Positions 15,985 to 30,239 are shown, counted from the first letter of the stretch. The stretch: DNA of 64,000 bases from Candidatus Moraniibacteriota bacterium (GCA_049303905.1 JBAQNP010000020.1:78309-142308), one strand, 5' to 3'. Numbers and translations are program-made. The notes: generated by a model not told the origin, from the letters alone.

Positions 15985-16371
15985 ATGAAAACAATCAACA
16001 GAAAATATCATTTATTTGATGCAAAAAAAGAAAATCTTGGTAGAATGGCAACAAAAATTGCGACAATTCTTCGTGGTAAAAACAAAGTTGATTTCACTCC
16101 AAATATCGATGGTGGTGATTTCGTGGTGGTTATAAATTCTGATAATTTGCAAGTAACCGGCAATAAGCTAGATGGAAAGTTATACCATCATTATAGCGGA
16201 TATCCTGGAGGAATTAGAAGCGTTAAACTCAAAGATCAAATTGAAAAAGATTCTCGAGAAGTTATAAAGACAGCCGTCTATGGGATGTTGTCAAAAAATA
16301 AATTGAGAGATTTGATGATAAAAAGACTTTTGATATATAAAGATGATAAGCACGAACACAAGATTTCGTAA
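15985..16371 (+). CDS. rplM: 50S ribosomal protein L13
   Basis: LGRMATKIATILRGKNKVDFTPNIDGGDFVVVINSD is canonical L13. Confidence 0.9.
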   Translation: MKTINRKYHLFDAKKENLGRMATKIATILRGKNKVDFTPNIDGGDFVVVINSDNLQVTGNKLDGKLYHHYSGYPGGIRSVKLKDQIEKDSREVIKTAVYGMLSKNKLRDLMIKRLLIYKDDKHEHKIS

Positions 16372-16390
16372 TTAGTAGAGAAAAAATATT

Positions 16391-16852
16391 ATGCCAACAA
16401 AGAAAATTGTAAAAAAAGAAGAGGAAAAAGCTCCCAAAAAGGAAGTTGCTAAAAAAGGACCTTATTTTTATGCAGTCGGCAGAAGAAAAACTGCCATAGC
16501 TAGAGTTAAGATTTTTCCGTCTGACATTGCTCAAAATACACTTACGATAAATGAAAAGAAATTTGAAGAATATTTTCCAGTGAGTCGTTGGCGAGATTTA
16601 GCAAAAGCCCCCCTAGCTTTGGCAGGAGAAGGTGCAAAATTTAGCGTAGAAGCGAAAGTTTATGGCGGTGGAATAAGCGCGCAAGCTGATGCAGTAAAAC
16701 TTGGAATCGCCAGAGCGCTTGTGCTTTTCAATAAAGATCTAAAAAAAGCTTTGAAGGGAGAAAAATATCTAACCCGTGATCCGCGAGAAGTGGAACGCAA
16801 GAAATTCGGCCTCAAGAAAGCACGAAAATCCCCACAGTGGGCGAAACGATAG
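16391..16852 (+). CDS. rpsI: 30S ribosomal protein S9 (Lys-rich N-terminal extension)
   Basis: YGGGISAQADAVKLGIARAL…KKARKSPQWAKR is canonical S9. Confidence 0.9.
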   Translation: MPTKKIVKKEEEKAPKKEVAKKGPYFYAVGRRKTAIARVKIFPSDIAQNTLTINEKKFEEYFPVSRWRDLAKAPLALAGEGAKFSVEAKVYGGGISAQADAVKLGIARALVLFNKDLKKALKGEKYLTRDPREVERKKFGLKKARKSPQWAKR

Positions 16853-17030: not shown

Positions 17031-17648
17031 ATGAACAAAGAAGAGATAAAAAAATTTATTGAATCATTCTTAGAAAAACAAGAACGAACTATTGTTATTG
17101 TAGATTATGGTAATGTTGAAAAATGGAAGAATAGTCTTGATTGGAAAGTAGGCACTAAAGAACTGGGGAACTTGGTTAAAAATTTTTCTAAAGGAAAGAA
17201 ATTTCTAAGAAGGTTTTATTATGGTTCAGATTATGGTAAAAGCGAGAATAATGAAAATTTGACTGGATGGTCACGTTCAATTCTAGAAAAAGCGGATATG
17301 AATAATTTTGAAGTAGTGACTAAGCGTGTAAAATACATCCATGATTTCAATAATAAAGCTGGATTTGAGAAAAAGTGTGACTTGGATGTTGAAATGGCAA
17401 TTGACTTAGTAAAAGAAAGAGAAAATTATGACACAATAATATTATTTTCTGGTGATGGTGATTTAATGTATGCGATAAAATATTTACATGATGAGTATAA
17501 GAAAGAAGGCTATGTTTTTGGTGCAAGAGATCATATTGGGAGAGAGATTTTTGATATGAAAAAAGAAGGAGTTATTAAGGATATTTTGTTTGCTGAAGAT
17601 TTTGAATATAGATTAAAAGATGCATATAATCCTAGTTTTTGGCGTTGA
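17031..17648 (+). CDS. NYN (LabA-like, PIN-fold) domain protein
   Basis: IVIVDYGNV…DLDVEMAIDLV…ILFSGDGDL matches the NYN acidic-residue constellation. Confidence 0.5.
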   Translation: MNKEEIKKFIESFLEKQERTIVIVDYGNVEKWKNSLDWKVGTKELGNLVKNFSKGKKFLRRFYYGSDYGKSENNENLTGWSRSILEKADMNNFEVVTKRVKYIHDFNNKAGFEKKCDLDVEMAIDLVKERENYDTIILFSGDGDLMYAIKYLHDEYKKEGYVFGARDHIGREIFDMKKEGVIKDILFAEDFEYRLKDAYNPSFWR

Positions 17649-17659
17649 TAAAATCAGAA

Positions 17660-17682
17660 AACCGCCTTACGGCGGTTATCGA
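17660..17682 (+). terminator. Hairpin ACCGCC-TTAC-GGCGGT (weak U-run)
   Basis: 6-bp GC stem just after the NYN stop codon. Confidence 0.35.
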
Positions 17683-17844
17683 TCAAAATGGGGCAGACCT
17701 AAAGTCTACGCTAATAATACTAGCATATATTGAAAAATATTTCAAGTGAGTTGTGGATAACTCTGAAAGGCGCTTTATTTAAGGGGTATAATTTGGAAAT
17801 CAGGGACACACTTTTGGCTTATTGGGAGAAAGGGGGTAAAATAG

Positions 17845-17893
17845 AAGTGTTAAGTAACCAGCCTCATCGGCGGACAAGCATGTTAAGTAACAA
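17845..17893. repeat. Island junction repeat (long form, GTTAAGT + CCTCATCGGCGGACAA core)
   Basis: GAAGTGTTAAGTAACCAGCCTCATCGGCGGACAAGCATGTTAAGTAACAA. Related copies at 18664, 26926, 27631, 28748. Confidence 0.45.
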
Positions 17894-17901
17894 TTAGCCA
17901 T

Positions 17902-18645
17902 ATGGAAAAAGACGAACAATACGAGAAAATTCTTCAACAAGCTAAAAATGATAGCGAGGTTCTTGGCTTTGCTTTGGTGGGAGGAAGAGGGAAAGGTTTT
18001 GTGACGGAAAATTCTGATTACGATATCTATATTATCACTTCCGAAAATTATCTGGATGAAGCTAAGAAAAAATATCCTTCAACTATAAAGCCATTTAAGT
18101 TTGATATTTTTGTGCATTCAATGACTTCCTTTAGAGAATATGCGAATTTTGGCACTTCACACAAATGGGATAGATATAATTTTACATATATCAAGGCTTT
18201 GTTTGATAACACGGATGGAGAATTTCAGAAACTTATCGATGAAAAAGGAAAAATTCCTGAAGATAGGGTGCGAGAAATAACCAAGGATAATCTTGATTCC
18301 TATATAAATTGTTTTTATCGTTCGGTGAAAAATCATCGAGACGGAAATGAATTTGCCTCATACTTGGATTCTACGGAATCTGTGCAGTGGTTGGTCGCTT
18401 TTGTTTTTTCGCTTGAAGGGCGAGTGAAGCCTTTTAGCAAATACATAGAGTGGGCTCTCAAAGAACATCCTTTGGAATTTTTGCCTTGGAGTGGAGAGGA
18501 CTTTATGTTAGTAATGAAAAAATTATTACAAATGGATAATATGGAATTTCAAAAAGAAGTTTTTCAAAAAATTTGCAAATTTGCGATAGAGCGAGGATAT
18601 AAAGAGATAATTGATAGTTGGGAGGGCTGCTATTTCGGGGAATGA
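17902..18645 (+). CDS. Pol-beta-fold nucleotidyltransferase (ANT(6)/Lnu-like)
   Basis: LGFALVGGRGKGFVTENSDYDIYIIT (a G-S-like motif plus paired Asp), followed by a helical C-terminal domain. Confidence 0.45.
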   Translation: MEKDEQYEKILQQAKNDSEVLGFALVGGRGKGFVTENSDYDIYIITSENYLDEAKKKYPSTIKPFKFDIFVHSMTSFREYANFGTSHKWDRYNFTYIKALFDNTDGEFQKLIDEKGKIPEDRVREITKDNLDSYINCFYRSVKNHRDGNEFASYLDSTESVQWLVAFVFSLEGRVKPFSKYIEWALKEHPLEFLPWSGEDFMLVMKKLLQMDNMEFQKEVFQKICKFAIERGYKEIIDSWEGCYFGE

Positions 18646-18663
18646 TTATTGATGGTAGAATGG

Positions 18664-18730
18664 AAGTGTTAAGTTCACCCTGTTAAATTGTGTTTTTTAT
18701 TTAATAGGGTAACATGTTAAGTAACATAAA
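18664..18730. repeat. Island junction repeat interrupted by a 43-bp MITE-like palindrome
   Basis: GAAGTGTTAAGT | TCACCCTGTTAAAT…ATTTAATAGGGTAA | CATGTTAAGTAACA. The inner palindrome (18672-18714) carries the same termini as 40065-40208. Confidence 0.45.
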
Positions 18731-18739
18731 TATAAACAT

Positions 18740-18922
18740 ATGCCTACGCGAAAAATTGAGGAGAAAAATGTACGCAAGCTAACGAGGATGGGGAGAGAGG
18801 GAAGTAGCCTCGGGATGACCATCCCCAAAGAACTCGCTCAAGAACTTGGTTGGCGGGAGCGTCAGAAGGTGGTGGTGAAAAAAGTTGGGAAGAATCTTGT
18901 AATTAGTGATTGGAAAAAATAA
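18740..18922 (+). CDS. AbrB/MazE/SpoVT-type small DNA-binding protein
   Basis: 60 aa; LTRMGREGSSLGMTIPKELAQELG…VVV…LVIS swapped-hairpin pattern. Locally GC-rich relative to its neighbours. Confidence 0.5.
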   Translation: MPTRKIEEKNVRKLTRMGREGSSLGMTIPKELAQELGWRERQKVVVKKVGKNLVISDWKK

Positions 18923-18937
18923 ATTTTTATAAAAATT

Positions 18938-20515
18938 ATGACCGAAGAACAAAAAAAGACTTTGGAGCGACAACTTTGGGGCGTGGCAAATGTTCTCAGA
19001 GGCAAGATGAATGCCGATGAATATAAAAATTATATTCTTGGCTTTATTTTCTATAAGTATCTCTCGGAGAAACTGGAACGCTATGTTGATACAAAACTCC
19101 TTGTGCGAGATAAGATTAAATTTTCTGAGATAAAAGAAAATACCAAGGAGGGAAAAGAATATTTGGAACACACGAAAAAGGCTTGTATCGATGAGCTGGG
19201 TTTTTTCCTGCGACCAACTGAACTTTTTTCCTATCTAGTCAAGAAAGGCAGAGGCGAGATTAAAAATGAAAAAACATTTATCATTGAAGATTTGAAAAAT
19301 ATCCTAAATGATATTGAAAAGACTTCTGCAGGAACAGCTAGTGAAGATGATTTCAAGGGCTTATTTGATGATATGGATTTGACTTCAACTAAGCTTGGTT
19401 CCAGGGAGAATGAAAAAAATGAAGTGGTGGTGGAGGTGCTCACTTTGCTTGACGGGATTGATTTTCAATTAGAAAACGCCAAAAGTGATTTGCTTGGTGA
19501 TGCCTATGAATATTTGATTGGAGAATTTGCCGCTGGAGCGGGGAAAAAGGGTGGTGAATTTTATACACCGGCTCAAGTATCGAGGCTTTTGGCTCAAATT
19601 GTTTCATTAGGTGAAACAAGGATTAAATCTGCCTATGATGCAACTTGCGGATCAGGATCTCTCTTGCTTCGTTTAGCAGAATTCACTAATGTGGCAAATT
19701 ATTATGGCCAAGAACTTAATCCGACAACATATAATCTGGCTCGAATGAATATGATTTTGCACGGAGTGCATTTTGATCATTTTTCAATTCTTAAAGGCGA
19801 TACACTTAAGGAAGATATGCATCCAGATCTTAAGGCACAAGCAATAGTCGCAAATCCACCTTTTTCATTAAAGTGGAAAGGAGACAGTGATCCACAATTG
19901 ATACATGATGAGCGTTTTTCACAATATGGTCGACTGGCTCCAAAAGATAGAGCTGATTATGCTTTTGTGACGCATATGCTTTATCACTTGGCTGACAACG
20001 GAACTATGGCGGTAGTATTGCCCCATGGTGTTCTTTTTGCAGGTGGAGCGAATCTTACAATTAGACAATATATCATAGAGAAACAGAATTATTTGGATAC
20101 TGTCATAGGTCTTCCTGCGAATTTATTTTATGGAGCTGCTATCCCAGCTACCGTTCTTGTTTTCAAAAAATGTCGTCGTGAAGATGAAGATATTTTGTTC
20201 ATTGATGCTTCAAAAGAATTTGAAAAAGGTAAAAATCAAAATCATTTGACCAATGAAAATCTGGAAAAGATTTTTGATACTTATAAAAATCGCCAAGAAA
20301 TTGAAAAATATTCCCATCGAGCGAGTCTTTCCGAAATAAAAGAAAACGAATTCAATCTCAATATTCCACGATATGTGGACACCTTTGAAGAAGAGGAGGC
20401 GATTGATATTGATGCAGTGGCAAAGAATTTGAAAGAATTGAACAAGAAAGAACTTGAATTTCAAGAAAAAATTGCAGGTTTTTGTGAGGAGTTGAAAATT
20501 GATAAGCCTTTTTAA
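18938..20515 (+). CDS. hsdM: Type I restriction-modification system, methyltransferase subunit
   Basis: N-terminal HsdM domain, motif I DATCGSGSLL, motif IV VANPPFS. Confidence 0.9.
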   Translation: MTEEQKKTLERQLWGVANVLRGKMNADEYKNYILGFIFYKYLSEKLERYVDTKLLVRDKIKFSEIKENTKEGKEYLEHTKKACIDELGFFLRPTELFSYLVKKGRGEIKNEKTFIIEDLKNILNDIEKTSAGTASEDDFKGLFDDMDLTSTKLGSRENEKNEVVVEVLTLLDGIDFQLENAKSDLLGDAYEYLIGEFAAGAGKKGGEFYTPAQVSRLLAQIVSLGETRIKSAYDATCGSGSLLLRLAEFTNVANYYGQELNPTTYNLARMNMILHGVHFDHFSILKGDTLKEDMHPDLKAQAIVANPPFSLKWKGDSDPQLIHDERFSQYGRLAPKDRADYAFVTHMLYHLADNGTMAVVLPHGVLFAGGANLTIRQYIIEKQNYLDTVIGLPANLFYGAAIPATVLVFKKCRREDEDILFIDASKEFEKGKNQNHLTNENLEKIFDTYKNRQEIEKYSHRASLSEIKENEFNLNIPRYVDTFEEEEAIDIDAVAKNLKELNKKELEFQEKIAGFCEELKIDKPF

Positions 20516-20523
20516 TAAGAAGT

Positions 20524-21099
20524 ATGAATTTAGATTTTCCAACAAGATTTTTAAAGAAGCTGGATATTTATCAGCAAATTAGAAATGGACAAGGTATTTC
20601 TAAGCATAAGAAATTATGGAAATACGAGGCTGCTTTTTTGCAGATTGCTTACGGCAATAGTCATCAATTTCTCAATGAATGTCCCAATGATGATATGGTA
20701 AAGGATTGGATAAAAAGAATAGAGAATGATTATGATGGTGACGCACTTCCTCAAGTTATTGGGAATTTAATTTGGCGAGGATATTTAATAAAAAAAGATA
20801 GTAGTACTTATAATATTACTAAAGAAGGATTGTTTGTTGGCGAAGTAGTAGCGGATATAAATAATAAAAGTTGTATTATTAAATTTTGGAATAAATATAG
20901 GTATAGTTTAATACTGGATTTGCTTTGGCTTGTAATAGCCATCGCTTTAATAAAATTATTTTTTCCTGAAAAATTTTTAAATGATATTCAAACATTCTTA
21001 CATTTAAATTCCATAAAAAATTATTTTATTGCAATTTTTATAGCATGGCCACTGTTTAATTGGATTTATAGAAGTTTTTATTCGGCGTTAGAAAAATAA
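20524..21099 (+). CDS. Hypothetical protein embedded in the hsd operon (two C-terminal TM helices)
   Basis: 191 aa; hydrophobic stretches LILDLLWLVIAIALIKLFF and YFIAIFIAWPLFNWIY. Confidence 0.4.
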   Translation: MNLDFPTRFLKKLDIYQQIRNGQGISKHKKLWKYEAAFLQIAYGNSHQFLNECPNDDMVKDWIKRIENDYDGDALPQVIGNLIWRGYLIKKDSSTYNITKEGLFVGEVVADINNKSCIIKFWNKYRYSLILDLLWLVIAIALIKLFFPEKFLNDIQTFLHLNSIKNYFIAIFIAWPLFNWIYRSFYSALEK

Positions 21100-21101
21100 A
21101 T

Positions 21102-22292
21102 ATGATAACCTTAGCTAAAACCAAAAATATTCCAAAACTTCGCTTTCCGGGTTTTTCTGATGAATGGGAAGAAAAGAAAATAAAAGATTTATTTGCTTTT
21201 AAGCAAGGAATTCAGGCTTCTGTAGAAACTCAATTATTTGAAAATATTTTTGGCACTGTAAGATTTATTAGGATTATTGATATAACACAATCAATAGAAT
21301 CTCCACGTTTCATTAAGGATCCTGGAAATATTTATCATGTGAGAAAAGAAGATTTATTTATGGTTAGATATGGCACACCCGGATTAATTTCAATCGGATA
21401 TGAAGGTGTAATTGCGAATAATCTCTTTCGATTAATTCCTGAACATAATAAACAAATAGATACAAAATTTTACTATTATAAATTTAAGCAGTTGGAAAAA
21501 AATATCTTAGCACTTTCAGGATCTTCTTCCATGCCAGCAATTAGTTTTTCAACATTAAATAACATAAAATTGCCAAAACCAATATTGGCTGAACAACAAA
21601 GGGTTGCTGAATTTTTGAGTTCAGTGGATGAGTGGATTTCTGATTTGCGAGGGCAAAAGGAAAGTTTGGAAAAATATAAAAAAGGAATGATGCAGAAAAT
21701 ATTTTCTCAAGAGATTAGATTCAAAGATGAAAATGGAAAGAATTTTCCGGAGTGGGAGGAAAAGAAGTTGGGGGATATTGGAAAGTTTTGGAATGGCAAA
21801 GCTCATGAACAAGAGATTTCTGAGAATGGAAAATATATTGTAATAAATTCAAAATTTATTTCACAAAATGGTAAGGTGAAAAAATATTCAAATAGCCAAA
21901 ATTCACCGCTTAAAAAAGATGATGTTGCTATTGTGATGAGTGATATTCCAAATGGTAAGGCTATTGGTAAATGCTTTTTGGTTGATAAAGATAATTTTTA
22001 CACACTAAATCAAAGAATTGGCGGTATTAAATCATCGGAGATTTTAAGTTCTTTTCTAATCCGAATATTAAGTCGAAATAAATATTTTTTGAAATTTGAT
22101 AATGGAGTAAGTCAAACGAATTTAAGGAAGGATGATATTCTAAGATGCCCAGTCGTATTTCCAATTATTCAGGAACAACAAAAAATTTCTGAATTTTTGG
22201 GATCAATTGATAATTTAATAGAATCTAAGCAACAACAAATAACTCAAGCTGAGCAGTGGAAAAAAGGTTTGATGCAGGGGTTGTTTGTATAA
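21102..22292 (+). CDS. hsdS: Type I restriction-modification system, specificity subunit
   Basis: Two target-recognition-domain halves, each followed by a conserved coiled region (…LISDLRGQKESLEKYKKGMMQKIF… and …QQQITQAEQWKKGLMQGLF). Confidence 0.8.
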   Translation: MITLAKTKNIPKLRFPGFSDEWEEKKIKDLFAFKQGIQASVETQLFENIFGTVRFIRIIDITQSIESPRFIKDPGNIYHVRKEDLFMVRYGTPGLISIGYEGVIANNLFRLIPEHNKQIDTKFYYYKFKQLEKNILALSGSSSMPAISFSTLNNIKLPKPILAEQQRVAEFLSSVDEWISDLRGQKESLEKYKKGMMQKIFSQEIRFKDENGKNFPEWEEKKLGDIGKFWNGKAHEQEISENGKYIVINSKFISQNGKVKKYSNSQNSPLKKDDVAIVMSDIPNGKAIGKCFLVDKDNFYTLNQRIGGIKSSEILSSFLIRILSRNKYFLKFDNGVSQTNLRKDDILRCPVVFPIIQEQQKISEFLGSIDNLIESKQQQITQAEQWKKGLMQGLFV

Positions 22293-22295
22293 ATT

Positions 22296-24125
22296 ATGAG
22301 TATAAATAAACACATCGAAGAATATCTAGATTATTATTGTGATTTCGCAAAAGATCTGCCGTTTGCTGTTTTGCTAAAAGGAAAATGGGGTTGTGGAAAA
22401 ACTTATTTTATAAAGAATTATATTGACCTAAGGAAAGATAAGAAAATTTTGCATGTTAGCTTATATGGCGTTGACAGTTTTAATGGGGTAAAAGAAAAAA
22501 TAATTATTGAATTGCTTCCATTCATCCCAGAAAAATATAGTAATTTTGCAAGTATCCTATATAAAAATATAAAAAAAATACCAAAAATTAGAGATTGGGT
22601 TCCATCTGATGCGGATGAGTTGTTAGTTGATATTTTTTTAAAAAAAAGTAATGGGTGCGTATTTGTCTTTGATGATCTTGAGAGATGTAATATAGAAATT
22701 GATAAACTACTTGGGTATATAAATAATTTTGTAGAATTTAAAAATCAAAAAGTTATTTTAATTGCAAATGAAGAAAATATATTAGACTCAAAAAGTGGTG
22801 ATAAATACAGGAAAATCAAAGAAAAATTAATCGGAAAAGAATTTTATATTAATCCTTCCCGGGAAGAGGCCATAATTCTATTTATCGAAGAAATAACAGA
22901 TGAAGGTCTAGGAAAATATTTAGAAAATATAAAAAAAATTCTTTCAGAAATATTTATTCAATCTAAATGCGATAATTTGAGATTAATTCAGCAAGCATTA
23001 TTTAATTTTGAATACTACTTTAAAAGTTTTTCAAGTAAGGCCAAGGAAGACGTTGAATTATTCGAAAGGATGTTTTATGAATTTATTGTAATTTTTATTG
23101 AGCATAAGAAAGGAGAAATAAAGAGTGATGAATTTTTCAAGGAATACCCCCAATTTTTTAAAGGATTACATGCAGATAAGGAAGTTATTCATTGTCTGGA
23201 TAAATATAAGTACGGGCTATCTAGTTGGCTTACTTGTTTTGATGTAAGTGTGTTAGGTAAGATTTTGCAAGGGATTGATTTATCTGAGAGTGAGAAGGCC
23301 GAAATGATTAGTAGATTTGAAAATTTTTCAGATGTCAACAAGGAATCTTGGCAAAAAACATGGTATCTTTATGAGCAGAGTGACGAAATTTTTTTCGAAA
23401 ATTTATTGGATGTTCAGGGAAAATGGGCAAAAAAAGAATATCTTGACCTATCTGTGGTTCTGCATGTTTTTGGGATGTTCTTAGATTTTTCTAAAAATGA
23501 ATTATTTCAAAAAACTAAAGAAGAAATATTAAAGGAAGGTAGGGAGTATATCGAATTTTTAATCGAAAAAGAAAAAATCCCTTTGAATATAAGGGAACAG
23601 AACGCAGGATTTAGTTGGAGGGAAAGTGCTTATGGTCTTCAATATACTGGAATGCAAAATGAAGAATGGAAAGAATTAATAAAATTTGTAGATGAAAAGC
23701 TGGAAAACCTAAAAGGAACTTATATTAAACAAAAAATTAAAGATGAATTGATGCCAATTCTAAGAGGAGAAAAAAGCTCTGAGCAGAGTTTGGATTTGTT
23801 GATGAATTATAATTTTTTTCATCATAATGGGAATAGAGAATCATATTTTCAATATTTTGATGTAAACGAAATAGTAAGTATTTTAATTGAGGGTGATCGT
23901 ATGTTTTTAGCTGCTTTGAAAAAAACTTTCAAAGAAAGATTTGAAAAAATGTCAACGCAGATAAGTGGTATTGAGCAAGAACTGCCATTTCTTGAAAAGT
24001 TAAATAAAGAGCTAGAAAATGAGATTAAAAAAATAGAAGAAAAATTTGGAAATAAAAAAACGCCAAGATCACTTTTAATAAAAAGTTTTATTAATGAAGC
24101 AATAAAGCCATTCATAAAAAAATAA
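22296..24125 (+). CDS. KAP-family P-loop NTPase
   Basis: KAP-type Walker [15 protein letters not shown] (GxWGxGKT) and Walker [10 protein letters not shown]; long helical C-terminal half. Sits between hsdS and hsdR, the PrrC position of prr-type loci. Confidence 0.6.
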
Positions 24126-24126
24126 T

Positions 24127-26925
24127 ATGACACACCAATCTGAACAAAAACTCGAAAAAACTCTAATCTCCCAACTTAATCGTTTGGGATTTGAGAGTGT
24201 GCAAATTGAAGACAATAATGCTTTGCAAAAAAATCTCAAAATCCAGCTGGAAAAATTTAATAAGATAACTTTTTCCGATGATGAATTTGTTCGCATTCTA
24301 AATCACGTTGAAAAAGGCGATCGATTCTATAAGGCAAAAACACTGCGTGATAGATTTGCATTAAAAAGAGACAACGAGGAGACTTTTTTTGTACGATTTT
24401 TTAATATGGATCAGTGGTGCAAAAATGAATATCAAGTAACACAGCAAATCACTCAAGTTGGAAGATATGAAAATCGCTATGATGTGACACTCTTGGTTAA
24501 TGGTTTGCCTTTGGTGCAAATCGAACTCAAACGCCGAGGGATGGAACTCAAAGAAGCTTTCAATCAAATTCAACGCTATCACAAGCATTCATTTACGGGA
24601 ACACTGTTTGAATATATTCAAATTTTTGTGATTTCCAATGGAGTAAATACTAAATATTTTTCTAATAATCCCAAGCAAACATTTGAACAGACTTTTTATT
24701 GGACAGATGCGGAGAATCGCAAAATTACCAAGCTGGATGAATTTGCGGAAATATTTTTGGCAAAATGCACAGTTTCGGAAATGATTGCGGAATATATCGT
24801 GCTCGCTGAGGCGATCAAGATTCCAATGACCCTTCGTCCATATCAATATTACGCTGTTCGAGCAATTGAAGATCGAGTGCGGGAATCAAACAAGAATGGT
24901 TATATCTGGCACACGACTGGAAGTGGCAAAACGCTCACTTCATATAAAGCTAGTCAAATACTTTCGAAGATTCCTGAAGTGAAGAAAGTGCTTTTTGTGG
25001 TAGATCGAAAAGATCTAGATATTCAAACGACTAAAGAATTCAATTCTTTTTCAGAAGGAGCAGTGGATGGCACAGGTAATACACATAGTCTGGTGAAACA
25101 ATTGGCGGACAAAAACCGAAAACTAATTGTGACAACAATTCAAAAATTGGACATTGCAATTGGTCGAGAAGTCTATCTCAAACAATTTGAATATTTGCAA
25201 AATGAAAAAGTGGTAATTATTTTTGACGAATGTCACCGCAGTCAATTTGGACAAACTCACGCGAGGATCAAAGGATTTTTCACTCAAGCACAATTGTTTG
25301 GATTTACTGGAACTCCAATTTTTGCGGATAACAATGTGGGTGGAGTGACAACAGTAGATGTGTTTGGGGAATGCTTGCATAAATATATTATTACCCATGC
25401 GATTTCTGATAATAATGTGCTGGGTTTTGCGGTTGAATATGTCGGGAAATATAAGCAGAAAGATCCAGACACACTGGATGCGGATATTTTTGCTGAAACT
25501 TTAGTGAAGGGGGTTGATACTAGGGAAGTATTGGAAAGTGATGATCGACTAAACAAAATTACAGACTATGTTTTGGCAGATTGGAAACGAAAAACAAAAA
25601 ATGGAAAGTTCAATGCAATCATGGCTGTTTCTTCTGTTGAAGTTTTGAAGAAATATTATAAATTACTAAAGGCTAAAAAAGCAGAAGATTTTTCCATTGC
25701 CACGATTTTTACTTATAAAGCCAATGAGGATGAGAGTTCGGATATGCTGGATGTGGATATTTTTGGCGATGAAAATTCTACCATCAATAAGCACTCCAGA
25801 GATTTTTTGGAGGAGTGTATTAAGGATTATAACAAGCGATACTTAACAAATTTTTCCACCGATCGTTTCTATGATTATTATCGAGATTTGCAAAAGCGAA
25901 TCAAAGAAAAGCAAGTGGATTTGGTGTTGGTGGTGAATATGTTTTTGACTGGATTTGATAGCCCACGGCTTAATACTTTGTATGTGGATAAAAACTTACG
26001 CTATCATGGATTGATTCAGGCCTATTCTAGAACAAACCGGCTTTTGAATTCTGATAAACCACACGGGAACATTGTAACATTTAGAAATCTGAAAGAAGCA
26101 ACTGATAGAGCCTTGGCACTTTTTGGTGATGAGAATGCTAAAGAAGTGGTGTTTAAGAAACCTTATGAAGTGCAGAAAAAAGAATTTGAAGACAAGTTGG
26201 CGGAGCTCAAAGAAAAAGTCCCAACAGTTTTCAGTGTTGATGAACTGAAAGGGGAGGAAGAAAAAGCAGAATTTGTGAAAACATTTCGAGATTTGCTTCG
26301 CATCAAATCATCGCTGGAAACATTTGCTGATTTTTCATTTAAGGATCTTGGAATAACGGAGCAAGAATTTTATGATTATCAAAGTAAATATTTAGATGTC
26401 TATGAAGATCGAAAAAACAATGACAGCGGAGTCGAATCAATTTTAGATCAGATAGATTTTGAAATTGAACTCACGGTGAGGGATGTGATTGATTTTGATT
26501 ATATCATTCAGCTTATTGCCGGACTTAAAAATATTAGTTCTGATGTGGTTCGTAAAAAGAAAACAGAAGAGATTTTGCGTTTGTTTGATCGGGATGTCCA
26601 ATTGCGAAAGAAGAAAGATTTGATCAAGAAATTTATCGAAGAGAATTTACCACGCATTGGCAAGTCGGATGATGTAGAAAAAGCCTTCAGTGATTTTTGG
26701 GCTAGTGAGCGTGCGGATAGCCTTAAGATTATTGCCAAGAATGAAAATATTCCAGTAGAGAAATTTGAACATTTGATTGGCGAATATCTATACACTCAAA
26801 AACTTCCTAATGGTCAGGATATTGTCGAGATGTTGCCAGAAGTGCCAATGATTAGAGAGCGACAAGGAATCATCGATCGTATCAAGGGAGCAATTGAAAA
26901 TATTGTGGATATGTTTGAGTGGTAG
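24127..26925 (+). CDS. hsdR: Type I restriction enzyme, R subunit
   Basis: N-terminal nuclease region, helicase motif I HTTGSGKT, motif [11 protein letters not shown]-terminal helical domain; 932 aa. Confidence 0.9.
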
Positions 26926-26962
26926 AAGTTTTTTGTTCAGTAACATGTTAAGTAACACTTTT
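26926..26962. repeat. Island junction repeat (short form)
   Basis: TTTTTGTTCAGTAACATGTTAAGTAACACTTTTT immediately after the hsdR stop. Confidence 0.45.
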
Positions 26963-26973
26963 TAAAAAAAACT

Positions 26974-27627
26974 ATGAATAAAAAGAAAATAATTGAAGCT
27001 ACTAAAGATTATGTAAAACTGAAAATGGAAGGGGATGGTTCGGGGCATGATTTTTGGCATGTTTATCGAGTTTGGAAAATGGCAATGCAAATTGGCAAAA
27101 AAGAAAAAGCGGATATGTTCATAGTTGAGCTCGGCGCGTTGCTTCATGATATTGCTGATTTTAAATTTAATAATGGTGATGATACTGTTGGAGCGAAAGT
27201 TTCTCGGGCTTGGCTAGAAAAACAGAAGGTAGATGAAAAGATAATTAAACACGTATGCAATATTGTTAATGGTGTGTCCTTTAAGGGAGCTGGAGTAAAA
27301 TCAGAAATTAAAACTAAGGAAGGGATGGTAGTTCAAGATGCTGATAGACTAGATGCCTTAGGAGCAATTGGAATAGCTAGAGTTTTTGCTTATGGTGGAA
27401 CTAAGGGAAGAGAAATATATAACCCAGAAATTAAACCTACAAAAAGCAAGTCATTTGAGGAATATAAAAAAGCTAACATAACCAGTATTAATCATTTTTA
27501 CGAAAAATTACTCTTACTTAAAGATTTGATGAATACTAAAACAGGCAAAAAGATGGCAAGTGAAAGGCATAAATTCACAAAACAGTATCTGGATAGATTT
27601 CTAAAAGAATGGGATGGAAAACTTTAA
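26974..27627 (+). CDS. HD-superfamily metal-dependent phosphohydrolase
   Basis: H…HD (GHDFWHVYRV…LLHDIADF) and a downstream DADRLDALG motif. Confidence 0.7.
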   Translation: MNKKKIIEATKDYVKLKMEGDGSGHDFWHVYRVWKMAMQIGKKEKADMFIVELGALLHDIADFKFNNGDDTVGAKVSRAWLEKQKVDEKIIKHVCNIVNGVSFKGAGVKSEIKTKEGMVVQDADRLDALGAIGIARVFAYGGTKGREIYNPEIKPTKSKSFEEYKKANITSINHFYEKLLLLKDLMNTKTGKKMASERHKFTKQYLDRFLKEWDGKL

Positions 27628-27630
27628 TAT

Positions 27631-27685
27631 AACTTTTTGTTCAGCCCACCTCATCGGCGGACAAATAACACTTTTTACATAAAAA
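27631..27685. repeat. Island junction repeat (long form)
   Basis: TTTTTGTTCAGCCCACCTCATCGGCGGACAAATAACACTTTTT; shares CCTCATCGGCGGACAA with 17862. Confidence 0.45.
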
Positions 27686-27883
27686 TATGACAGAAAAACA
27701 ACAACTTAATTTAGATTTTGAAAAAGCCGTTAGGATGATGGCGAAAACCAGAAAATTTCGATGATCCGATTTTTGAAAAATTAATTATGTAATTGTAAAT
27801 GAGAAGCTATCCACAGCCCAAGAGTTGCCAGGATTAGTTTAGAGTGATATAATATCATCATCATAATACTAAACTAAAAAAAT

Positions 27884-28738
27884 ATGACTAAAAAAACAAA
27901 AAATAATCTGGTAATTTTTGAGGAACATTCTGTTCGAAGAGAGTGGGATGGAAAAAAAGAAAAATGGTATTTTTCTGTTATCGATATCATTTCCGTGCTT
28001 GTTGAACAGCCTGATTTTAGAAAGGCAAAGAGTTATTGGACGACACTAAAAGGCCGACTCAAAAAGGAAGGCAGTGAGTTGGTCACAAAATGTGACCAAC
28101 TGAAAATGCAATCGGCTGACGGAAAATTTTATAAAACAGATGTAGCTAGCATAGAAACAATTTTGCGCTTAATTCAATCTATACCGAGCAAAAAAGCTGA
28201 GCCTTTCAAATTGTGGTTGGCAAAAGTGGGAAAGGAAAGAATTGATGAAATTGCTGATCCGGAATTAGCAGTCAGCAGAGCTAAGGGAATTTATGAGAAA
28301 AAAGGTTATCCAAAAGATTGGGTGGACAAGAGAATGAGAGGAATTGCTGTAAGGAATACTTTGACTGATGAGTGGAGTGAAAGAGATATAAAAAAAGGAA
28401 ATGAATTTGGAATTTTGACTAATGAGATTTATAAAAATACTTTTGATGAGGATTATAAGTCTCTAATGAAGATAAAGAATTTAGACAAGAAAAATAAGGA
28501 TAATTTGAGAGATCACATGGGGGATATTGAGTTGATTTTGACAATGTTGGCTGAGGCAACTTCTACTGACATTTCCAGATCAAAAAATTCAAAAGGATTG
28601 GAAGAGATCCGAATTGATGTCAAAAAAGGCGGAAAGATTGCAGGGGAGGCAAGGGAGAAAATTGAAAAAGAAACTAATCGGAAAGTTGTGATGAGAGGAA
28701 ATTTTAAAGAAGCGGGTGGTCAAAAAAAGTTGAAATAA
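27884..28738 (+). CDS. Bro-N-like domain protein (phage antirepressor-like N-terminus)
   Basis: The N-terminal ~120 aa (VRREWDGKKEKWYFSVIDIISVLV…) resemble a Bro-N fold; the C-terminal half is charged and helical. Confidence 0.35.
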   Translation: MTKKTKNNLVIFEEHSVRREWDGKKEKWYFSVIDIISVLVEQPDFRKAKSYWTTLKGRLKKEGSELVTKCDQLKMQSADGKFYKTDVASIETILRLIQSIPSKKAEPFKLWLAKVGKERIDEIADPELAVSRAKGIYEKKGYPKDWVDKRMRGIAVRNTLTDEWSERDIKKGNEFGILTNEIYKNTFDEDYKSLMKIKNLDKKNKDNLRDHMGDIELILTMLAEATSTDISRSKNSKGLEEIRIDVKKGGKIAGEAREKIEKETNRKVVMRGNFKEAGGQKKLK

Positions 28739-28747
28739 TTTTTTGTT

Positions 28748-28795
28748 CAGTAATATATTAAGTAACACCTTTTTAATTTTTGGATTATGTGACTA
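28748..28795. repeat. Island junction repeat (short form)
   Basis: TTTTTTGTTCAGTAATATATTAAGTAACACCTTTTT. Confidence 0.45.
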
Positions 28796-28896: not shown

Positions 28897-29190
28897 TTAT
28901 TTTTTCTTCTTAGAAACTACTTTTTTGATTTCGGCTTTGGTTTTGACAACCTTTTCTTTCTTGGGTTTTTTGGCTACTTTTTTGGCGGCTGCTTTTTCGG
29001 CTAATTTCTTGAAACGATCAACTCGGCCCGTAGCGCCCATTTCTTTCTTTTTGCCGGTATAGAGCGGGTGGCAAGCGCCACAAATTTCGATTTTCATCTC
29101 CGGAACGGTTGAACCGGTTTCAATGACATTTCCGCAAGAACAGGTTATTTTTGCGTCAGAGTAGTACTTAGGATGGATGTTTTTCTTCAT
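28897..29190 (-). CDS. rpmE: 50S ribosomal protein L31 with Lys-rich C-terminal extension
   Basis: MKKNIHPKYYSDAKITCSCGNVIETGSTVPEMKIEICGACHPLYTGK is canonical L31. Confidence 0.85.
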   Translation of the reverse strand: MKKNIHPKYYSDAKITCSCGNVIETGSTVPEMKIEICGACHPLYTGKKKEMGATGRVDRFKKLAEKAAAKKVAKKPKKEKVVKTKAEIKKVVSKKKK

Positions 29191-29237
29191 AAAGTTAGGC
29201 AGGTTTTAGTTGTTTATACTAAGATAATTTAGCATAG

Positions 29238-29266
29238 CTTTTGAGAATTGACAAGGGGCGAGGTGG
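29238..29266 (+). promoter_or_regulatory. Sigma70-like promoter (TTGACA-17-TATATT) with a ~150-nt structured leader
   Basis: TTGACA 29238-29243, 17-nt spacer, TATATT 29261-29266, upstream of rpsB. Confidence 0.5.
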
Positions 29267-29423
29267 GTGGTATATTAGATAAGTCGTTTTATTTGATATG
29301 GAACGGCTAAAACACATACTTTCTTTGGATTCCGTCCTGATCCCTAAAAAAGGGATTTTAGGAGTCCAGCTTTTTAGTAGGCCAAGAGAAGGTAGCGGAG
29401 ATAATTAATTAAGGAAAAAAACA

Positions 29424-30239
29424 ATGGAAGAAAATAAGAAAGAATCGACCGTAACGGTTGATCAAACTACTCCAGCTAAACAGCCGGTAGTTGATTGTTT
29501 CTCCGATTTAGATTTTTCTAAATTGGAAGTGACCCTTGAAGAAATGTTTAAGAGTGGTGTTCATTTTGGACATCATAAATCGAGAAAGAGTCCAAAGATG
29601 AGCAAATTTATCTTTGCAACCAAAGATAATATTAACATTTTAAATTTGGAAAAAACCAAAGAGAAACTTGAAGAGGCAATGAATTTTATCTCTAAATTGA
29701 TTAGCGAAAATCAAGAGATACTTTTTGTTGGAACAAAAAAACAAGCTAAGAAAATAGTAGAATCGGCTGCTAAGAAATGTAGCATGCCAAGTGTCACAGA
29801 AAGATGGCTAGGTGGAACTTTCACTAACTTTTCAGCAATTTCTGGTCGCACTAGATATCTTCGCGAAGGATTAGAAAAAATGAAAAAAGGTGAGTATGTC
29901 AAATATACAAAATTTGAACAAATGAAAAAAGCAGAAGAACTGGAAAGATTGGAAAGTAAAATGGGTGGGATAAAAGAAATGATGAAATTGCCTGGGGCTA
30001 TTTTTATCGCTTCAGTAATGGAGGATAATATTGCTTTGAAAGAAGCTAAGAATAAAGGTATTCCAGTCATTGCTTTGGTGGACACTAATATTGATCCAAC
30101 AGATGTGGATTATCCAATTCCAGCCAATGAAGACGCTGTTTCATCTTTGAAATTAATGTTAGCCTATATTGTAAAAGCTGTGTTGGAAGGAAAAGATAAA
30201 AAAGAAAAATCAATCATTGAAGAAAAAGTAATTAGTTAA
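29424..30239 (+). CDS. rpsB: 30S ribosomal protein S2
   Basis: MFKSGVHFGHHKSRKSPKMSKFIF… is canonical S2 with a short N-terminal extension. Confidence 0.9.
   Translation: MEENKKESTVTVDQTTPAKQPVVDCFSDLDFSKLEVTLEEMFKSGVHFGHHKSRKSPKMSKFIFATKDNINILNLEKTKEKLEEAMNFISKLISENQEILFVGTKKQAKKIVESAAKKCSMPSVTERWLGGTFTNFSAISGRTRYLREGLEKMKKGEYVKYTKFEQMKKAEELERLESKMGGIKEMMKLPGAIFIASVMEDNIALKEAKNKGIPVIALVDTNIDPTDVDYPIPANEDAVSSLKLMLAYIVKAVLEGKDKKEKSIIEEKVIS

Follow-up and report, generated by a model that had tools for sequence, protein, structure and literature searches.

Defence genes embedded in Type I restriction-modification (R-M) operons are an established pattern. PADLOC's phage defence candidates (PDCs), 145 in their curated form, came from a "guilt-by-embedding" screen of BREX, DISARM and Type I R-M loci for genes lodged inside them (Payne et al. 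2024, bioRxiv 10.1101/2024.01.29.577857). PrrC is almost exclusively embedded in Type I R-M loci, and TgvAB, from the Vibrio cholerae island VPI-2, works without HsdR activity, with protection stronger when the whole cluster is present. Several KAP NTPases have been tested experimentally as phage defences, namely Tmn, EF_KAP together with three metagenomic KAPs, QatA, Reve and PifA. EF_KAP requires both its Walker B motif and its C-terminal region, QatA binds DNA and forms 7-8-mers, and Reve is a single-gene KAP-domain system of a P4 hotspot. Here we describe a Type I R-M operon that carries the genes of a 609-aa KAP NTPase and of a 191-aa protein (p191) between its hsd genes. It lies in a 64,000-nt stretch of DNA, hereafter the window, from a metagenome-assembled genome (MAG) of Candidatus Moraniibacteriota (Patescibacteria, of the Candidate Phyla Radiation or CPR; GCA_049303905.1 JBAQNP010000020.1:78309-142308). 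Database entries of 100% identity show this origin. Coordinates are those of the window, and compared loci are numbered with the prefix L.

Open reading frame (ORF) calling placed six genes on the + strand at 18740-26925, in the order and common direction that the original prediction had described:

18740-18922, + strand: AbrB/MazE-like gene, 60 aa (PF04014)
18938-20515, + strand: hsdM, 525 aa (TIGR00497; NPPF motif)
20524-21099, + strand: 191-aa passenger, p191 (no library match)
21102-22292, + strand: hsdS, 396 aa (Methylase_S, two matched stretches)
22296-24125, + strand: KAP NTPase, 609 aa (PF07693; PADLOC PDC-S49)
24127-26925, + strand: hsdR, 932 aa (EcoR124-type; DECH motif)

The spacers along the cluster are 15, 8, 2, 3 and 1 nt, so that the range of 1-10 nt given in the original prediction holds for the last four and fails for the first. 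Judging from this spacing, the six genes are probably transcribed as one unit. We interpret the locus, with a probability of roughly 0.6, as a functional Type IC R-M operon with two separately acquired passengers, an autonomous anti-phage KAP NTPase and an R-M-associated membrane protein.

The R-M genes themselves have the sequence features of a complete Type I (EcoR124/IC-type) operon into which two genes have been inserted. HsdM, HsdS and HsdR are all present as full-length matches to curated models, including the PADLOC models MTase_I, Specificity_I and REase_I. HsdM, the m6A DNA methyltransferase subunit, matches TIGR00497 at 3e-142, and HsdR, the restriction and translocase subunit, matches TIGR00348 at 2.5e-146, with HSDR_N, SWI2_SNF2, T1R_D3-like and EcoR124_C (PF12008, 1.1e-56) domains. 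HsdS has two target-recognition domains, and its conserved internal repeat, as is usual for this subunit, is found at 21591-21629 and 22173-22211. Catalytic motifs were found in the translations of HsdM (NPPF) and HsdR (DECH), and from the intact subunits and motifs the system is predicted to be functional.

Several lines of evidence place the 609-aa protein in the KAP family. The search against Pfam KAP_NTPase (PF07693) gave 68.7 bits at a cut-off of 20, with sub-threshold matches to AAA_14 and FWWh as the only other Pfam results. All three PADLOC models of PDC-S49 are matched end to end: PDLC05031 at 3.9e-126 (residues 1-604 against 1-610 of 624), PDLC05029 at 8.5e-105 and PDLC05030 at 4.7e-74. 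At E <= 0.01 PDC-S49 was the only PADLOC family to match, with no PrrC, Tmn or Qat model among the results, and phrog_4740 of the PHROG library matches over the full length (6e-61). The Walker A motif, GKWGCGKT, and the Walker B motif, VFVFDDLER, are both present as predicted, and G29, W31, G32, G34, K35 and T36 of the former and F125, D126, D127, E129 and R130 of the latter are invariant across 20 relatives. The assignment to a KAP-type NTPase rather than to an ABC ATPase of the PrrC/RloC kind therefore stands, resting on the Pfam match and on PDC-S49 as the single PADLOC family. A further point of the original prediction, which knew of no characterised pairing of a KAP NTPase with a Type I system, needs correction: the pairing is not new, being already catalogued as PDC-S49, and KAP proteins of other families block phage. 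The pairing is a Patescibacteria example of a catalogued candidate family and not a new principle. A literature search returned no paper that mentions PDC-S49 and no report of an experimental test or a mechanism.

Transmembrane (TM) segments were sought by Kyte-Doolittle hydropathy with a cut-off of 1.2. No segment of the KAP protein reaches this value, and no clear TM segment lies between Walker A and Walker B in 20 aligned PDC-S49 relatives, for which the best scores were 1.22 and 1.28. The protein thus appears to belong to a soluble branch; inserted TM helices are typical of the KAP family and are not demanded by the Pfam model. Its layout consists of an NTPase core (~1-290) and an all-alpha C-terminal region (~317-609), and the AlphaFold2 (AF2) model (pLDDT 80.7, pTM 0.46) likewise has a P-loop core to ~290 and an all-alpha C-terminal half. 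Foldseek comparison with the PDB returned ORC, Cdc6, DnaA, MuB, RdrA and TnsC-type ATPases at TM-scores of 0.2-0.3, with no effector fold among the matches. A profile search against PDB sequences gave no relative and a search of a viral fold library added nothing, while tblastn matches in phage records were limited to the NTPase domain. For the C-terminal 300 residues we found no family, no PDB sequence match and no anticodon-nuclease domain. This half diverges faster than the core: identities to close relatives are 62 against 82%, 60 against 75% and 57.5 against 72% for the C-terminal half and the NTPase core, respectively. Two close relatives have an added C-terminal serine-hydrolase domain.

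By analogy, the KAP protein may act as an ORC/Cdc6/DnaA-like P-loop switch that oligomerises or changes state upon NTP binding and hydrolysis, with the faster-evolving all-alpha half recognising a phage-derived or DNA ligand and phage replication being blocked as the outcome. We favour NTP-dependent oligomerisation and C-terminal ligand recognition because of the ORC/DnaA-like fold, the two regions that EF_KAP requires, and the DNA binding and 7-8-mers of QatA. Embedding in the hsd operon would then mean that KAP is co-expressed and co-transferred with a first-line R-M system, the two forming complementary layers, and KAP would not need to depend physically on the R-M enzyme in the way of PrrC.

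To place the gene among its relatives, one genome per species was scanned for 185,579 species, which yielded at least 474 confirmed KAP relatives. The contexts of the best 80 of these were analysed with the window's Hsd proteins as probes and a radius of 8 kb. The relatives recur in or beside hsd loci, as had been anticipated: hsd genes occur within 8 kb of 11 of the 80, and Type I components head the list of immediate neighbours, ahead of HNH, TniQ, Eco57I/MmeI methylases, ParE and integron Cass2. A random gene is expected near hsd genes in well under 1% of cases, and the enrichment is about 30-fold by our own rough estimate, which is not a computed control. An all-against-all BLAST of neighbours revealed no recurrent operon partner of KAP apart from the hsd genes. 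In the remaining 69 of the 80 contexts no hsd gene is nearby.

PDC-S49 members are embedded in defence loci in the window, L008, L088, L091 and L065. The window, L008, L088/89 and L091/92 form a sister operon lineage of four Patescibacteria loci, in which identities range from 81 to 87% for hsdR, 77 to 83% for hsdM and 57 to 71% for KAP. KAP follows hsdS directly in L008 and L088, as it does in the window, and two other passenger genes separate them in L091. Locus L091 (2476-12624) is in its own right an unusually crowded, four-passenger Type IC operon, hsdM-Fic-hsdS-Abi_C-279aa-KAP-hsdR, with a PDDEXK/RNase_H_2 gene and a SocA_Panacea gene behind it. In all four loci KAP is directly upstream of hsdR, with a junction of 1-nt spacing or 8-nt overlap.

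The retention of this junction in operons with differing passengers, together with a position between hsdS and hsdR that is the slot of prrC, is what would be expected if KAP were a guard in the manner of PrrC, held inactive by HsdMSR and freed by a phage anti-restriction protein to cause cell death or arrest, with a tie to HsdR in the Patescibacteria Type IC lineage. Two further loci lean the same way. In Nostoc, whose hsd genes are of the same subfamily as those of the window (hsdR 50-55% and hsdM 57% identical), a PDC-S49 gene again lies beside hsdR. L090 (8001-13605), a locus outside the hsd operons, encodes a 64%-identical KAP fused at its C-terminus to a serine alpha/beta-hydrolase domain (PF06821), and the gene of a 1064-aa UvrD-helicase/PLD-nuclease/Zn-ribbon protein begins 7 nt further downstream. 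This is a hint that helicase-nucleases are preferred partners; two integrase genes flank the pair, which may be a two-gene variant of the KAP system. However, the four sister loci are one inherited operon and count as a single insertion event, and the position and orientation of KAP relative to hsd genes vary in independent arrangements: KAP lies between hsdM and hsdS in Lentisphaeria, before hsdM in Bacteroidales, and convergent with hsdR in Nostoc. No nuclease or other toxic domain was detected in the protein either, and it matches no PrrC model. Most relatives, moreover, are far from any hsd gene, and the E. coli members described below stand alone in P2 hotspots. The analogy to PrrC drawn in the original prediction thus survives as one of gene position and finds no support in domain content or in the 69 of 80 contexts, and we regard a guard of this kind as unlikely.

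Full-length PDC-S49 proteins (E 4e-156) are encoded in P2-like prophages of E. coli, between the replication gene gpA and the portal gene, at a site that we take to be the tin/old hotspot; a match is present in 336 of 5426 complete E. coli genomes, and WP_032176113.1 is one of the proteins from this hotspot. In one case (L113, 9096-12505) the gene lies between gpA/DinI-like and portal genes, beside a RES-family NAD+ phosphorylase gene, and in another (L114, 9096-13082) it occupies the same P2 position beside a hypothetical gene and an HNH endonuclease gene. According to a 2026 survey, defence loci of P2 are concentrated in a few hotspots. Membership in PDC-S49 was confirmed for all relatives that were checked, including those of E. 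coli, Nostoc and Lentisphaeria. A copy on a cyanobacterial plasmid is surrounded by transposases. Because 69 of the 80 contexts are free of nearby hsd genes and the E. coli copies sit in P2-prophage hotspots, the family reads as autonomous: it looks like a mobile single-gene module for which R-M operons are a frequent but not an obligatory site.

The same distribution bears on whether the passengers have anything to do with defence. They could instead be tolerated between hsd genes as insertions of a selfish or neutral kind, or as cargo in decay. Their GC contents (0.273 and 0.278) are lower than those of hsdM (0.366) and hsdR (0.361), no effector domain was found in KAP or p191, and the defence role of PDC-S49 is unvalidated, all of which would suit inert cargo. 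Yet both ORFs are intact and full-length, the catalytic residues of KAP are invariant across phyla, p191 keeps 31 invariant positions over 24 relatives, and the KAP family occupies defence slots of three unrelated kinds, namely in hsd operons, in P2 hotspots and in Tn7/integron neighbourhoods. A non-defence origin is, on this evidence, distinctly improbable.

The second passenger, p191, had been put forward as an uncharacterised protein with two C-terminal TM helices. It matches nothing in Pfam, NCBIfam, PADLOC or PHROG, in keeping with the first part of that description. The second part holds for one helix and is marginal for the other: residues 129-147 form a strong hydrophobic segment (Kyte-Doolittle 2.62), and a segment at ~162-180 reaches ~1.1 by hand calculation, under the scan cut-off of 1.2. 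Among 24 relatives, 22 have at least two segments over the cut-off. In the AF2 model (pLDDT 83.5), a part made up of helices and a beta-hairpin precedes the long helices of the C-terminal end, 117-146 and 164-190. The top Foldseek matches in the PDB are all winged-helix proteins (MarR, MntR/DtxR, N-domains of O-methyltransferases and SSV1 F-93), weak at E >= 0.018. These features suggest a membrane-anchored protein with a C-terminal hydrophobic hairpin and an N-domain that weakly resembles a winged helix.

The p191 family comprised 39 clusters by direct match and 52 clusters by a profile search among 5.8 billion entries, and when 1.84 billion representatives were searched exhaustively with the profile, 77 hits were obtained, 26 of them at E <= 1e-10. 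All named members are from Patescibacteria (Moraniibacteriota, Andersenbacteria, Microgenomates and Berkelbacteria). The N-terminal 50 residues are basic and nearly invariant (RFLKKLDIYQQIR...K.LW.YE..FL), and are followed by a variable insert, a conserved GLxxGEV motif and the hydrophobic helices; the 31 invariant positions were counted across 24 relatives with 44-68% identity to the window protein. The family is undescribed as far as our searches reach, and is a more original lead than KAP.

The neighbourhoods of p191 are rich in R-M genes. As a survey of its homologs had been expected to reveal if the association were real, the family recurs in hsd operons: p191 is operonic with Type I hsd genes at four loci. 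In the window, L101 and L096 the next gene is hsdS, and in L007 one gene intervenes; L007 and L101 carry hsd genes of another Type I subfamily than the window does. In L100, p191 comes directly after a Type III res gene with mod upstream; in L093 and L102 it follows Eco57I-like methylase genes or a T5orf172-ResIII helicase gene; in L107 it follows a fragment of an EcoRI-like methylase gene; in L003-L006 it follows a gene for an SLFN-type helicase; and L108 has it behind an HTH-ImmA pair (HTH, helix-turn-helix), at a distance of 1.4 kb from an AlwI/D12 R-M system. Altogether a methyltransferase, restriction enzyme or defence-type helicase is encoded within two genes in about 10 of the 14 informative contexts, with gaps mostly below 30 nt. 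For comparison, a 2026 survey of Patescibacteria counted only a small number of methyltransferases in each genome, and for restriction enzymes a total of 4,737 in 12,552 genomes, or ~0.4 each, and because of these low counts a random Patescibacteria gene would be expected near such an enzyme in, roughly, a few percent of cases. All-against-all BLAST of the neighbours found no recurrent operon partner beyond the hsd genes.

Two of these loci are unusual in their gene content. L007 (5983-15333) has five inserted genes in the order hsdM-RVT_3(RNase H-like)-p191-110aa-hsdS-AAA_21-DUF4276-hsdR. In L003-L006 (6087-9297, Andersenbacteria) a MazG-like gene, an SLFN-group-3-type helicase gene, p191 and a 209-aa gene are followed by an HTH-SocA_Panacea gene, a set that may be another defence cassette.

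From these contexts p191 would be a generic R-M-associated accessory or a second defence gene. Because the partner enzymes differ and the N-domain is invariant, we infer that this basic domain binds something common to all contexts, DNA or a host component at the membrane side, rather than a specific R-M enzyme.

Could the two passengers belong together? The membrane-anchored state of Tmn and EF_KAP, the lack of a hydrophobic segment in the window KAP and the presence in the same operon of a separate gene for a membrane-hairpin protein raise the idea that p191 is an anchor in trans, replacing the helices inserted in the classic KAP P-loop domain. The occurrence of the genes speaks strongly against it. 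Among the loci examined, KAP and p191 occur together in the window only; KAP is present without p191 in L008, the closest sister operon, and in L088 and L091, and p191 without KAP at about 20 loci. In the window hsdS lies between the two. Moreover, all 20 aligned PDC-S49 members, whatever their context, are free of TM segments in the region from Walker A to Walker B. The anchor in trans was rejected, since the genes never co-occur elsewhere among these loci, and we give it almost no weight. Because L008 is without p191 and no other p191 locus has KAP, the two are best taken from their gene distribution as unrelated passengers, separately acquired.

A number of observations weigh against the interpretation of the locus as an R-M operon with an autonomous anti-phage KAP and a membrane protein linked to R-M. 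PDC-S49 is unvalidated in defence, as one paper says of the PDC candidates, and KAP yielded no match to an effector domain, be it a nuclease, protease, TIR or pore. The fold likenesses of KAP are partial, as seen from the TM-scores and the pTM given above. For p191, the likeness to winged helices is weak, with a Foldseek E of 0.018 at best, the window copy has a marginal second TM segment, and R-M genes were not seen in four of the 14 contexts (L001, L097-99, L109 and L110). Promoter and terminator scans of the cluster performed no better than chance. The tight and conserved KAP-hsdR junction, the same-subfamily adjacency in Nostoc and the helicase-nuclease neighbour in L090 also fit a coupling of KAP to HsdR. 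A bolder view of the locus has two parts: p191 would found a Patescibacteria-specific class of membrane-anchored winged-helix accessories for R-M types I, IIG-like and III, either holding enzymes at the membrane or DNA-entry site of ultrasmall DNA-scavenging cells or serving as an R-M-linked membrane effector, and separately KAP would be coupled to HsdR as a PrrC-style guard with a different NTPase. We consider this view conceivable but doubtful.

At the head of the operon, the AbrB-like gene was correctly described as GC-richer (0.459 against 0.343 for the window). Its 60-aa product matches MazE_antitoxin/SpoVT-AbrB (PF04014; E 5.8e-7, 29.8 bits at a cut-off of 24.7), and NCBIfam gave weak AbrB and doc-partner matches. 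No called gene with exactly this product is on record in the source collection, and the region gave no Rfam match, no tRNA match and no fold signal (z -0.16) as an RNA gene. The Pfam match and the weak doc_partner hit agree with the proposal that it is an antitoxin with a toxin partner in the cluster. Its neighbours do not: no cognate toxin gene (MazF, PIN or Doc) lies beside it, the next gene being hsdM and the upstream one, 94 nt off beyond a repeat element, a nucleotidyltransferase gene. Nor was an AbrB-like ORF found upstream of hsdM in 12 other hsd loci, the sister operons included. The corresponding slot in L008 (5008-5190) holds a non-homologous 60-aa ORF, ITLAEACSILALHPNTLRKWDNSG..., which by eye reads as a putative excisionase/MerR-type HTH protein. 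This suggests that small DNA-binding genes are exchangeable at the head of sister operons, and a small DNA-binding regulator fits better than an antitoxin. Of the two roles proposed for the gene, that of an antitoxin is therefore very improbable, and that of a local DNA-binding regulator of the unit is the most economical view, plausible if weakly supported.

The unit is bounded by repeats. Two exact copies of an 18-nt sequence, GTAACATGTTAAGTAACA, bracket the stretch from the AbrB-like gene to hsdR, at a chance expectation of 0.05 matches per window; variants occur at 17875, before the nucleotidyltransferase gene, and at 28750, after a Bro-N gene. An alignment of five intergenic regions revealed a modular element that consists of TTTTTTGTTCAG, an optional CCTCATCGGCGGAC, and then TAACATGTTAAGTAACAC with a T-run:

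18709..18726, + strand: left GTAACATGTTAAGTAACA copy, 14 nt before the AbrB-like start codon
26940..26957, + strand: right GTAACATGTTAAGTAACA copy, 14 nt after the hsdR stop and 16 nt before an HD-domain gene
17840-17904, 18675-18742, 26906-26976, 27610-27690 and 28716-28790: copies of the modular repeat, at gene boundaries over a span of ~11 kb

The element was not found elsewhere in the window with up to 3 mismatches, and the sister loci are without the repeat. A shared promoter/operator or a cassette boundary are possible roles of the element, and its placement suggests that the AbrB-like gene and the hsd operon form one repeat-bounded unit, a cassette-like or commonly regulated island. The cluster sits in a segment (17031-28738) between rplM-rpsI (15985-16852) and rpmE/rpsB (28897-30239). 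Its content, NYN and nucleotidyltransferase genes, the hsd cluster, the HD-domain gene (phrog_3921, 6e-25) and the Bro-N gene (phrog_15286, 1e-89), looks like that of a variable or defence island set among ribosomal-protein genes.

The locus matters in three respects. PDC-S49 is widespread, occupies three independent kinds of defence slot, and, unlike Tmn and EF_KAP, is soluble, with no recognisable effector domain; a new mechanism may well be found in it. The p191 family is a concrete lead on R-M in organisms with almost no experimental genetics. The conserved KAP-hsdR junction bears on whether embedded genes are merely co-located with, or coupled to, the host system.

Among known systems, the closest likeness is to PDC-S49 itself, which the window KAP matches over its full length and with which it shares the situation of a lone gene lodged within a Type I R-M operon. 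The difference lies in the host, a Patescibacteria MAG; such MAGs are, we assume, poorly represented in the RefSeq set behind the PDC screen. With PrrC of EcoprrI and with RloC, the window KAP shares the slot between hsdS and hsdR and a P-loop NTPase N-domain. The ATPase of those proteins is of the ABC type, whereas that of the window is KAP/AAA+-like and is not joined to an anticodon-nuclease domain, and, in contrast to PrrC, most relatives of the window KAP live outside hsd loci. The tested KAP defences resemble it in layout, with no known domain in the C-terminal region that comes after the KAP P-loop domain. Tmn and EF_KAP differ in having TM helices in or near the P-loop domain, where the window protein appears soluble, and Reve, which PADLOC does not recognise, is probably of another family than PDC-S49.

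The controller (C) proteins of R-M systems are small, of a DNA-binding type and encoded at the operon head, like the AbrB-like product of the window. They are typically found in Type II systems, have an Xre-type HTH and act at defined C-box operators, whereas the window protein has a SpoVT/AbrB fold. TgvAB and the rlo genes of Campylobacter jejuni are, like KAP and p191, extra defence genes nested among hsd genes as a second layer. The families are unrelated, GmrSD-like type IV restriction there and a KAP NTPase with a small membrane protein here. The best-supported view of the window locus is likewise one of layered defence, in which a Type IC R-M system would be joined by KAP, as a switch that is autonomous and driven by NTP, and by p191, as a membrane protein associated with R-M.

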